Shown: one piece after another, positions 2,576-57,970 of the stretch | Numbering within the stretch: the stretch's first letter is position 1 | Layout of the letters: every line of letters starts with the position of its first letter | Source: Octopus vulgaris | Taxonomy: Eukaryota | Direction: 5' to 3' | Assembly: GCA_951406725.2 (NCBI GenBank) | Contig: OX597824.1 | Coordinates: 1,426,001 to 1,490,000 of the forward strand | DNA length: 64,000 nt | The notes under the pieces: model-generated | The model's database searches: none | What the model saw: only the letters and a program-made list of their open reading frames with translations | What the model was told of the DNA's origin: nothing | Position numbers and translations under genes: made by a program

Positions 2576-2800
2576 AAAAAAAGTCAAGGTAGAAAATGCT
2601 AAAATAATTTTATAAAGACATTTCAGTACTGCCACTTGTATTTGAACACTATACAAATATTCTTTTAAAAAAGCTTTTCTTTTAATTTTTCCAAATTCAA
2701 TTGTTAACCATACTTACAGTTGAAAAAGTCTCAATGACTGAAACCGGCACTGAAATGTTTTTTATAAAATTATTTTGGCATTTTCTACCTTGACTTTTTT
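2576..2800. repeat. ~54-bp inverted repeat around a hammerhead-like motif
   Basis: aaaaaagtcaaggtagaaaatgctaaaataattttataaagacatttcagtac (2576-2629) is the near reverse complement of 2747-2800. Confidence 0.85.
2717..2752 (+). ncRNA. Minimal type-I hammerhead motif, U3:A8 variant, cleavage site mutated
   Basis: cag-TTGAAAA-agtc(tcaat)gact-GAAA-ccgg-CA-ctg; the opposite arm reads ...gTActg, suggesting an ancestral UA site. Confidence 0.6.
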
Positions 2801-4084
2801 CTATATATATACATACATATATATATACATACAAATATATATATATATATATATATATATATATATATATATATATATATATATATATATATATATATAT
2901 ATATATATATATATATATATATATATATATATATATATATATATATATATATATATTATATATATATATATATATATATACATACACACACATGCATACA
3001 AACATACTTATAAATCACGATTAATTTAAAGAAACTATTGAAATACGCTCACGCAATTCACACCGAAAACGTGTTTCCAGTTACAACAGAGAAGTTATTG
3101 TTTTATGCCATGTGTTAGTAACATCATTCTCTTTCTTATTAAGTTGTTTACTATGGAAAACCATTCCGGCCTTGTATCGCCGAGGTATATGAAGACATTG
3201 TCACAGTAAGGAAAGACTAGTAAATGTTTAAAGTAGTCGTCAGCTTAGGAACTGATGTAGTGAACTTAACTTACTTGACAACTGACGATAAAATTGAAAG
3301 GGTAGATTCACTTTGAAGAATTATTTAGCTTTAAGTAATGTTGGAAGTATCTTAACGAACAAAGAGATTGACTTCTTTCTAGCAACAGGAATATTGTTGA
3401 ATATGCTTCCATCTTTCCTAAACTCATTTTGAAATTGACATTCCAACTCGCTCTTACTCGAACGTTATCCGCATCGAAGCAGCGTATAAGTCGCACGTAT
3501 TCCTGTTTTATCCTCAGATATTCTAGACTTAATAGACAGAATTTTAGGAAGCAAAATTCTTTATTTTTAGATGTCGGTTTTAAGATTAAAGAATGGTTTA
3601 CACCTAAGTAATTCTATATCTTGTTTGATGGATGCTGTTTGACAAGGAAAATAGATGAGAGACGCGCAGTCGAACTTAATGTTTTCAATGGTGAGTAGAT
3701 TTCGTATATAAATAGAGTTATCCGTGTTCTTTGATAAAAATCTTCGTAATCCAGCCTTCGTTTCCTATATTTTTTCTGAGTTCTCTTTAGTCATCACAGA
3801 TTATACACACGCGCGCGCCGGCATACAGTCTCACACACGCACACATACAGACACATATACACACACACGCATGATCATACACACGCGCGCACAAGCTTAC
3901 ACTCACACACACGTACACCCATAGACACACGTGCGCGGGGGTGTGTGGCTCCGATATACATGGAAAGTTGTGCATATCTGCGCAGCATACAAAGTTTCGC
4001 CGACGGAAAGCACGCGATCCGTGGCTTCGTTTGTCCAAACTTATTTTTGTGGGGAATGTGTGTGATTGTGTGTGTATATATTCT

Positions 4085-4492
4085 CTTATTCTTTCATTTG
4101 TTTCAGTCATTTGACTGCGGTCATGCTGGAGCACCGTCTTTAGTTGAGCAGATCGACCCCAGAACTTATTCTTTGTAAGCCTAGTACTTATTCTATCGGT
4201 CTCTTTTGCCGAACTGCTAAGTTACGGGGACGTAAACACACCAGCATCGGTTGTCAAGCAATGTTGGGAGGATGAACACTGACATACAAACATATATACA
4301 CACATACATATATATAGATACATATATACGACGGGCTTCTTTCAGTTTCCGTCAACCAAATCCATTCACAAGGGTTTTTGTTGGTGCGAGGCTATAGTAG
4401 AAGACACATGGCCAAGGTGACCCGCAGAGGGACTGAACCTGTATCCATGCGGCTGGTAAGCAAGCTACTTACTACACACACACTCCTGCGCC
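4085..4492 (-). mobile_element. tRNA-derived CORE-like SINE (family A) with internal microsatellite
   Basis: Minus strand starts aggcgcaggagtgtgtgtgtagtaagtagcttgc...ggttcagtccc (A/B boxes), then caccttggccatgtgtctt; related copies at 28095-28460, 52960-53490, 54570-54930, 56915-57100. Confidence 0.85.
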
Positions 4493-4779
4493 TATATACA
4501 TAAATACATATATATATGTATATATATATATATATATATATATATATATATTCTTTTGCGTGTGTGTGTGTGTATATGTTTATATCCATCTACCAATTTC
4601 TCTCTCTTTCTCTCTCTCCTTTTCTTTCTCTCTCTCTCTCTATATATATATATATATATATATATATATTTATAGTTTTACATATAGTATATATTAGTTA
4701 CAGAATACTTTTAGTAAAAATATACATCATTGAAACAAATTACTTCTACAAAATACATTTGCCTCTATTCCCCGCCCCC

Positions 4780-5140
4780 ACACTCGCACATACACACACT
4801 CACACATACGTTCGCACGCAGACACGCACACACGTCCTCGCGCACACACATACACACACATACACATACCCTCATGCAGACACACAGACACATATGCTCG
4901 CACGCAGACACACACACACACACACACACACACACACATGCTCGCACGCACATATACATGCTCGCACACGCACACACACGCACGCACACATACACACACA
5001 CATGCTCGCACGCACACATACATGCTTGCACACGCACACACATGTACACACACACACACACATGCTCGCACGCACACATACATGCTCGCACACGCACACA
5101 CACACACAATCACACTCGCATGCAGACACACACACTCGCA
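4780..5140. repeat. (CA)n-derived minisatellite with recurring cacatgctcgcacg unit
   Basis: catgctcgcac recurs about 6 times inside CA runs. Confidence 0.8.
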
Positions 5141-56579: not shown

Positions 56580-57100
56580 CAGCGGTTAGAGCGTCGGGTT
56601 CCCAATCATGAGGTAGTGAGTTCGAACAATCTGTGCTGTGTTGTGTTGTGCTCTTGAGTAAGACAATTCATTTCACGTTGCTCCATTTCACACAGCTGCA
56701 GAAATATGTTGCGACGTTACTGGTGCTAAGCTGTATCGGCCCCTTTTGCCTTTCCCTTGTATAACATCAGTGGCGTGGAGAGGGGAGGCTGGTATACATG
56801 GGTGACTGTTGGACTTCCATAAACAACCTTGCATGGATTTGTACATTGGAGGGGAACTTTCACCGTGCAATCCCACGATCATTCATGATCGAAGAGGGTC
56901 TTTACTCGAATCTTTTACCGTTTTACTTGTTTCAGTCATTTGATTCTGGTCATGCTGGAGCACTCTTAAAGAGGTTCAGTCGAAGAAATGGACTCCAGGA
57001 TTTATTTGTTGCAAGCCTGGTACTCATTCTATCAGTGTGTTTTGCCGAACCGCTATCTTAAGGGGACATAAACACAGCAGTATCCGTTGTGAAGCGATGT
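56580..57100. mobile_element. Plus-strand tRNA/CORE-like SINE (56580-56910) abutting a minus-strand family A 3' half (56915-57100)
   Basis: agcggttagagcgtcgg...gagttcgaa, tgctcttgagtaagac; then gtttcagtcatttgattctggtcatgctggagcac. Confidence 0.7.
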
Positions 57101-57246
57101 CTGTGCAACAATGCAACAATTCAGGTGCATTTTCAAATCCTAGACCAAATTCTCCCACCTTGTTTCCTGCGTAGGAATGTATTTAATCTCTCCATATATA
57201 TATATATATATATATATATATATATATATATATATATATATATATA

Positions 57247-57821
57247 GAAAGAAGGTTTGAAAATGCAATTTAAAAGATGTTTATTTACTTTACCGGTTTC
57301 ACTCTTTGGAAAAAGATTATCAAAAGTAACATGTGGAAGTTTGGTTGCGTTAATTATTGGTTGTTGCAAATTGCTACATTACATATATATATATACAGTC
57401 TTTGGTAAAAGGGACATGTTAAGGACATAAAAAAGTACAACAGTATGTTGAGAACATAAAGAGGTTTAACAAGATCATTGAAAAAATGGGCAGAAAAGAT
57501 TAAAGTACTGAACTTTTATAATAATTCCTCCTGGAAATTACCCTGAGATGTATAATATATTTGTTTTAATCTTTTCTGCCTATTTTTTTCAATGAGCTTG
57601 TTAAATCTCTTTATATTCTCAACATACTGTTGTACTTTTTTATGTCCTTAACATGTCTCTGTTTCCAAAGACTGTATATATACATGTAATGTAGCAATTT
57701 GCAACAACCAATAATTAACGCAACCAAACTTCCACATGTTACTTTTGATAATCTTTTTCCAAAGAATGAAACTGGTAAAGTAAATAAACATCTTTTAAAT
57801 TGCATTTTCAAACCTTCTTTC
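57247..57821. repeat. Long fold-back: ~258-bp arms, ~60-nt loop, about 10 differences
   Basis: 57247-57504 versus reverse complement of 57565-57821. The ORF track shows the near-identical peptide MQQPIINATKLPHVTFDNLFPK on both strands. Confidence 0.95.
57285..57329 (-). ncRNA. Hammerhead-like motif, U3:A8 variant (mirror copy 57739-57783, plus)
   Basis: ttactt-TTGATAA-tcttt(ttcc)aaaga-gt-GAAA-ccgg-TA-aagtaa; the 2-nt insertion before GAAA is non-canonical. Confidence 0.6.
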
Positions 57822-57922
57822 GTATATAATTCCACTCGTGCGATACCCCACAACTCAACTTTGTTATATATATATATATATATATATATATATATATATA
57901 TATATATATATATAAATATATC

Positions 57923-57970
57923 GTCTCTGATGAAGGGATAACCCTAATAACCCAGAAACAGCTGTAAGAC
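57923..57970 (+). ncRNA. Minimal type-I hammerhead motif, C3:G8
   Basis: gtct-CTGATGA-a-ggg(...)ccc-a-GAAA-cagctg-TA-agac, with palindromic stem III. Confidence 0.7.

Follow-up and report, generated by a model that had tools for sequence, protein, structure and literature searches.

Hammerhead motifs with three alternative core pairs at an Octopus vulgaris glutamate receptor gene, and their probable source in Penelope-like elements

The receptor locus and its hammerhead motifs

The window analysed here is the whole stretch of 64,000 nucleotides from Octopus vulgaris (contig OX597824.1, positions 1,426,001–1,490,000). A metabotropic glutamate receptor (mGluR) gene on the minus strand has two of its coding exons here, together with the minimal hammerhead ribozyme motifs that are the subject of this report. 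The protein closest to the window mGluR carries the name Octopus vulgaris mGluR3-like (P0001). The following exon lies ∼54 kb to the left of the window; positions 1–37283 are a portion of the 91-kb intron 2, and positions 38352–48048 are intron 1. An earlier note, made from the letters of the sequence alone, had described about 13 motifs fitting a hammerhead, scattered through the mGluR introns. All 13 were found where it had placed them, with the sequence of each printed, but only 5 have an intact core, stems I and II and a stem-III palindrome or hairpin; the other 8 are decayed copies, in which the core, the GAAA box, the palindrome or the cleavage-site base has changed. The intronic placement holds for the motifs from 2717 to 44248 (2717–37087 in intron 2, 43275–44248 in intron 1), but for 57285, 57739 and 57923, which are ∼8 kb ahead of the mGluR start codon, it does not follow. 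Motifs, and the repeat families to which they belong, are named below by their first coordinate.

Receptor exons:
48049–49416, minus strand: first coding exon of the mGluR gene (residues 1–456)
37284–38351, minus strand: second coding exon (cysteine-rich and seven-transmembrane part)

Intact motifs:
17055–17104, minus strand: minimal type-I hammerhead, core GUGAACA (G3:C8), with stems I and II of 7 and 5 bp, AUAU palindrome and U17; sense, intron 2
43578–43626, minus strand: C3:G8 motif CUGAGGA with a short hairpin as stem III; sense, intron 1; old repeat family (75–87% identity)
44248–44284, minus strand: minimal hammerhead with U3:A8 core UUGAAAA, 3-bp stem I and AU palindrome; sense, intron 1
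57285–57329, minus strand: minimal hammerhead with U3:A8 core UUGAUAA (mostly UUGACAA in its family), its palindrome being CCGG; on the upstream side of the mGluR start codon
57923–57970, plus strand: C3:G8 motif with CAGCUG palindrome; antisense; other family copies seen carry C4

Decayed motifs:
2717–2752, plus strand: copy of a U3:A8 family, U16.1 changed to C; antisense
33436–33470, minus strand: copy of a C3:G8/C4 family, GAAA changed to GAGU
36025–36104, minus strand: motif with long stem II, 3' of a GIY-YIG-like relic; extra core base, broken palindrome
37087–37166, plus strand: inverted partner of 36025 on the 5' side of the relic, A9 changed to G
43275–43321, plus strand: inverted partner of 43578, core G3.G8
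43863–43912, minus strand: inverted partner of 43928, C3.A8 and broken GAAA
43928–43974, plus strand: copy of a C3:G8 family, lacking the UH cleavage site
57739–57783, plus strand: inverted partner of 57285, palindrome CCGG changed to CUGG

The palindromes across the motifs are AUAU, AU, CCGG, CG, CAGCUG, CGCG and CAAUUG. A palindromic stem III that would permit dimers is found among the motifs, with weak energies for the AU-only palindromes. Stems I and II differ between families and still pair, with compensatory changes, as had been proposed; alignment of 17055 with 44248 showed compensated swaps in stem I, in stem II and in the 3:8 pair. Most intact copies seen of the 33436 and 57923 families have a C4 core (CCGAYGA), and the canonical CUGAUGA of the window copy of 57923 may be a product of CpG decay of CCGAYGA. 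Two further U3:A8 families, with CGCG and CCGG palindromes (L117:95, L161:7049, L107:9915), are absent from the window.

Repeat families and their protein-coding parents

A first look at repeats yielded 477 candidate copies for 17055, 1,632 for 57285, 1,125 for 44248 and 1,981 for 2717, the best of which were 92–99% identical, and 252 for the older 43578 family. The copies end in (TA)n and commonly include an inverted partial duplicate. The 17055 family has two alternative 3' ends ∼60 nt apart, and one copy (L002) is flanked by a 14-bp target duplication. Such tails, inverted duplicates, dual 3' ends and target duplications are hallmarks of Penelope-like elements (PLEs) (PMC8557442, PMC11167929). 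Anatomy and repeat families together bear out the assignment of the motifs to PLE-type minimal type-I hammerheads in several families. At two sites the insertion itself can be described: 57285 and 57739 together form a single inverted PLE insertion, and the 17055 motif lies in the following feature.

16921–17189, minus strand: 5'-truncated copy of the pseudo-long-terminal repeat (pLTR) of the G3:C8 PLE; part of it is duplicated in inverted orientation, as a fold-back at a palindrome

Two families could be traced to elements with long open reading frames (ORFs). In the U3:A8 family of 57285 the motif occurs ∼2 kb 3' of an 846-aa frame with reverse transcriptase (RT) and GIY-YIG endonuclease, and again 5' of it, so that the two motifs are direct repeats ∼5.8 kb apart flanking the ORF (L153, L154). 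The 846-aa ORF has a Pfam hit to RVT_1, the endonuclease motif being recognized by eye, and more than 100 among the matches listed were 90–97% identical. Also in this element (L153:6686–5283, minus strand; L151, L154), a 468-codon upstream frame starts just after the 5' hammerhead and overlaps the RT frame in a different phase; it had no Pfam match above the cut-off. For some types of PLE, PMC8557442 mentions a frameshifted ORF1. In the G3:C8 family of 17055 an uninterrupted frame of 1,025 aa is followed, ∼1,005 nt to its 3' side, by the motif (L163; also L164, L004, L156 and L157). This ORF has a Pfam hit to GIY-YIG, RT motifs by eye, a BLASTP match to the 846-aa ORF (E = 1e-7) and dozens of copies that are 97–99% identical.

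The hammerhead lies inside the pLTR, a tail is present, and the pLTRs are arranged directly in L153 and L154 and inverted in L152 and L163. Both ORFs combine an RT with a GIY-YIG endonuclease at the C terminus, partly by motifs read by eye, as in endonuclease-containing (EN+) PLEs. Both also show a CX2-5CXXC linker before GIY-YIG, which together with (TA)n targets is characteristic of the Neptune/Nematis clades as delimited in PMC8557442. The two lineages share only ∼21–30% identity in aligned pieces. Since each comprises many long open-frame copies that are 96–99% identical, both families were active very recently. Through one endonuclease fragment each, the 44248 family is tied to the 1,025-aa lineage (L035, 40%), as is the 846-aa lineage to a 2717-like motif (L038, 55%); no tie of protein P0121 to the 44248 family was established.

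Judged from these sequence comparisons, the 17055 and 57285 motifs are the 3' ends (pLTRs) of 5'-truncated, autonomous, protein-coding PLEs. The earlier note had taken the motifs for small non-coding elements derived from PLEs; because the 17055 and 57285 families attach to intact ORFs, the motifs do not form a separate non-coding class, and that part of the note has to be corrected. A related proposal is that they mark small retrozyme-like elements that replicate as short RNAs, independently of autonomous elements. Most copies of 17055 and 44248 indeed have nearly coincident starts, a little upstream of the motif, which is what a short template would produce. The identical pLTR, however, is joined to intact ORFs, no tandem monomer array was seen at the 13 sites (copies are single or inverted), and a palindrome at the 17055 junction explains truncation by fold-back. 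We regard this proposal as improbable. Non-LTR retrozymes (bioRxiv 10.64898/2026.07.22.740005) likewise carry type-I hammerheads derived from PLE pLTRs, but they are tandem non-coding monomers, whereas the motifs in octopus are the ends of coding elements, scattered or inverted.

Abundance and the 3:8 core pair

The abundance of the motif was assessed with a strict descriptor, in which positions 3 and 8 were unconstrained, using shuffled sequence as a control. The window contained 3 matches with a Watson-Crick 3:8 pair; none of 100 shuffles had as many, their mean being 0.05 and their maximum 1. The genome was sampled as 60 evenly spaced stretches of 10 kb (599,900 bases in total). The first version of the descriptor gave 12 Watson-Crick and 3 other matches in this sample, with shuffle totals of 0–6. 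With the second version, which permitted C4 and required a palindrome or hairpin, there were 13 C:G, 5 U:A, 1 G:C and 1 C.A matches (19 Watson-Crick and one mismatch); shuffles of the sample (n = 30) gave 0.4 Watson-Crick (maximum 2) and 0.87 other matches (maximum 3). The swarm therefore passed the shuffled-sequence check in both window and genome sample. The density of intact motifs is ∼30 per Mb, which by extrapolation to the 2.8-Gb genome would amount to some 50,000–140,000; a handful within a large gene is therefore expected.

The 3:8 pair was other than C:G in 6 of the 19 intact sample motifs. Since about a third are of this kind and others carry C4, descriptors based on CUGANGA, and Rfam, undercount them, as the earlier note had anticipated. 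The Rfam hammerhead families gave no match at 17055, 57285 or 57923; their best match was HH9 at 43262–43336, with 21.5 bits against a gathering threshold of 52. A whole-window Rfam search gave, among the 150 listed of 341 matches, only microsatellite-driven miRNA matches, and the output of a repeat finder on the window was likewise dominated by microsatellites. The fourth pair, A3:U8, had no match in the 600-kb genome sample. A search for A3:U8 or additional G3:C8 families with a strong (S4) palindrome, which is blind to AU-rich palindromes, gave 56 matches against 214 in the reversed control, and no family with paired stems.

Genome-wide searches with family patterns, in which positions 3 and 8 were set to N, gave the state of the pair within families, read from 100 listed matches each. 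The 17055 pattern had 2,102 exact matches (control 0), with G3:C8 in 98 of the 100 listed, and the 57285 pattern had 1,372, with U3:A8 in all 100. For 44248 there were 1,761 matches; 90 of the 100 listed were U3:A8, 8 were C3.A8, and G3.A8 and U3.G8 occurred once each. The three pairs (C:G, U:A and G:C) thus sort by family, in keeping with the covariation originally claimed. When 145 descriptor matches were grouped into 18 sequence clusters (11 C:G, 5 U:A, 1 G:C and 1 C.A), 17 of the 18 were Watson-Crick, against a permutation mean of 9.0, and 17 was reached in 5 of 100,000 permutations; this is not a clean probability, as the clusters share ancestry, 10 are single matches and three are metagenomic.

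The G3:C8 core and the GAAA box had no alternative letter at ≥5% in contigs of four organisms, while loop II varies. U17 was found in 52 of 53 matches of this family. A G3-C8 variant was less active with C17 than with G17 (PMC3884650), and we infer that U17 avoids a G3-C17 pair.

Among metagenome relatives of the G3:C8 element (32–47% identity; 13 loci, of which 9 have 3' sequence and 5 a motif, two found by descriptor and three by eye), the motifs sit just 3' of the ORF. Their pair is C3:G8 in L165 and L172 (descriptor) and in L168 (by eye, with G4), and the cores of L169 and L167 (by eye) are U3:A8-like. The presence of C3:G8 or U3:A8 in related elements suggests that the catalytic pair is likely under selection. 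A tree of 12 PLE proteins (without reference PLEs) has an open backbone and a long outgroup, and the order of the 3:8 changes is not settled by it.

The 3:8 pair is part of the hammerhead's active conformation (PMC3884650), so its compensation points to catalysis. Fixation of a double transversion to G3:C8 in a family that was active recently speaks for selection on catalysis. The contrary account is that the folds are relics or protein-binding structures, in which the pair is no longer catalytic and drift in master copies led to fixation of the swaps. It gains from the mismatched, C4 and weakly folding motifs considered below, from the dispensability of cleavage in vitro (PMC11167929) and from Naiad PLEs, which thrive without hammerheads (PMC8557442). 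To reach G3:C8 from C:G or from U:A, however, takes two transversions that pass through mismatches, and still only one of the 18 clusters is not Watson-Crick; moreover, the core stays while N7, loop II and H17 vary. Overall, we consider drift an unlikely explanation, although less so than independent replication as short RNAs.

Folding, possible activity and the host gene

Stems I and II of 17055 are mostly predicted to form with P 0.9–1.0. As monomers, published minimal PLE motifs failed to cut, and their dimers showed weak cutting (PMC4209133). The PLE hammerhead of Anolis required its protein, and a C3G/G8C double mutant partly rescued cleavage in vitro (PMC11167929).

The explanation that we favour, and hold to be probable, is that the motifs are minimal type-I hammerheads in the 3' pLTRs of several PLE families, left behind as short, 5'-truncated and often inverted copies, that selection for self-cleavage, acting in the source elements, likely maintains the 3:8 pair, and that the scattered copies are likely inert passengers. 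It builds on the anatomy, the family structure, the link to ORFs (17055 and 57285) and the covariation of the 3:8 pair between families. RNA of the source element would carry the hammerhead inside the pLTR. Stem III would then form between the palindromes of two copies in a tandem transcript, or the protein of the element would fold the hammerhead, and cleavage after H17 would process the precursor. Insertion would proceed by target-primed reverse transcription starting from the pLTR end; early fold-back in this reaction could yield the short inverted copies, which contain an uncut motif. For the host gene the scattered copies would be neutral.

Several observations weigh against this explanation. 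Parents with full ORFs were traced for 17055 and 57285 only, and not for the families of 2717, 33436, 43578, 43928, 44248 and 57923; Pfam gives no RT hit for the 1,025-aa ORF. Palindromes made of A and U only are weak, and pairing can run on from them into A13/A14 and U17/U1.1, a competing and inactive arrangement (−0.2 versus −3.8 kcal/mol). The active double hammerhead lies above the best cofold by 3.9 kcal/mol for 17055 and by about 10 for 44248. The best structure of the window copy of 57285 is not a hammerhead, and 44248 and 57285 fold less well than 17055. Two families (33436 and 57923) carry C4 in place of U4. The C3.A8 state of 44248 (8 of 100 listed copies; L035, L086) compares with a change of ∼1 in 100 at neighbouring free positions; such copies suggest a mismatched subfamily that is still able to spread, or could be an intermediate in 3:8 change. 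The likeness of young copies reflects descent and not selection. The Anolis element did not need cleavage to insert in vitro, and none of the reads ended at the cut site (PMC11167929).

Much of the general picture is already published, and the novelty given in the earlier note to the swarms and to the U3:A8 swap was overrated. Cervera and de la Pena (2014, PMC4209133) reported thousands of single minimal PLE hammerheads in metazoans, with opposite-strand pairs (100–700 bp apart) and a U3-A8 variant (∼1,300 hits in Schistosoma mansoni). As in octopus, these motifs are type I, with a palindromic or absent stem III, an extra base after A9 and G10.1-C11.1, and lie in pLTRs. Unlike them, the octopus motifs show three 3:8 states in one genome and along one PLE lineage; G3:C8, C4 variants and octopus were not found in the portions of that paper's text and supplement text available. 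Natural 3:8 covariation was also described by Perreault et al. (2011, PMC3088659), where U3-A8 alone is named and topologies and hosts are mostly other. PLE-associated variants with a short stem III that cleave as dimers were reported by Lunse, Weinberg and Breaker (2017), according to the title and the review PMC6765202. In Anolis carolinensis, the Poseidon element PAc (Frangieh et al. 2024, PMC11167929) shares the pLTR hammerhead near the ORF start, the tail and AT-rich targets, but there G3:C8 is an engineered, partly active rescue, whereas in octopus it is a natural, fixed state. The octopus elements have the CX2-5CXXC linker of Neptune/Nematis type, unlike Poseidon.

What looks new is the fixation of a G3:C8 ribozyme in an element that is young and intact; the connection with mGluR is incidental. 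In the literature searched, G3:C8 is so far known only as a laboratory mutant, while its natural flip appears in the sequences of a young family of ∼2,100 copies. No natural G3:C8 hammerhead was found in that literature, which left out Lunse 2017, Hammann 2012 and Przybilski and Hammann 2007. No octopus hammerheads were found there either, and the available text of an octopus repeat annotation (PMC13282606) makes no mention of ribozymes. More tentatively, and with somewhat less than even confidence, we propose that a young, intact, autonomous octopus PLE family bears the first natural G3:C8 hammerhead, that this is an active ribozyme, that its pair has gone through the states C:G, U:A and G:C within a single retroelement lineage, and that cleavage by PLE hammerheads is under selection in vivo although in vitro it is dispensable. 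If so, a natural RNA-protein pair would be available for testing why cleavage is selected, with an intact ORF and its natural ribozyme at hand for reconstitution. Cleavage by PLE hammerheads is weak and was not required for insertion in vitro (PMC11167929), and it has been suggested that they merely parasitise PLEs (PMC8557442).

For the glutamate receptor the finding is probably without consequence. The earlier note had raised the possibility that sense copies in the introns cut the mGluR pre-mRNA; such cutting would tune receptor expression. Three copies (17055, 43578 and 44248) are intact and sense within introns; the stems of 17055 fold well, and 43578, with its short hairpin as stem III, is the sole copy that might act alone. 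Against this, the window has one copy per family, and the 17055 and 44248 families are absent from the 40 kb of flank read (∼24 kb of intron 2 lie outside the region read). The palindromes differ between families, so no dimer partner was seen. The 57285 motif precedes the start codon, and an inverted copy of it lies opposite. At ∼30 motifs per Mb, their presence in a 120-kb gene is expected, and the published monomers that do not cut (PMC4209133) and the need for a PLE protein (PMC11167929) argue in the same direction. We consider cutting of the receptor transcript highly improbable, and the least probable of the explanations weighed.

Apart from the motifs, the introns contain the following relics of PLEs:
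15974–16321, plus strand: endonuclease fragment in intron 2, 41% like the 846-aa ORF (protein comparison)
30106–31245, plus strand: RT frame in intron 2 with an RVT_1 hit (Pfam)
36503–37024, minus strand: open frame between 37087 and 36025, read by eye as a putative PLE GIY-YIG endonuclease relic

The frame at 36503–37024 had no Pfam match and no BLASTP match to the two traced PLE proteins. Broken frames in intron 1 (40641–41743, plus strand), labelled by eye and without a Pfam match, resemble the 3' part of ORF2 of a long interspersed nuclear element (LINE; L1/Tx1-like). The inverted PLE ends at 16965–17189, 43879–43961 and 57399–57671 would give long RNA hairpins from either strand, which are possible substrates for editing or for small RNAs.

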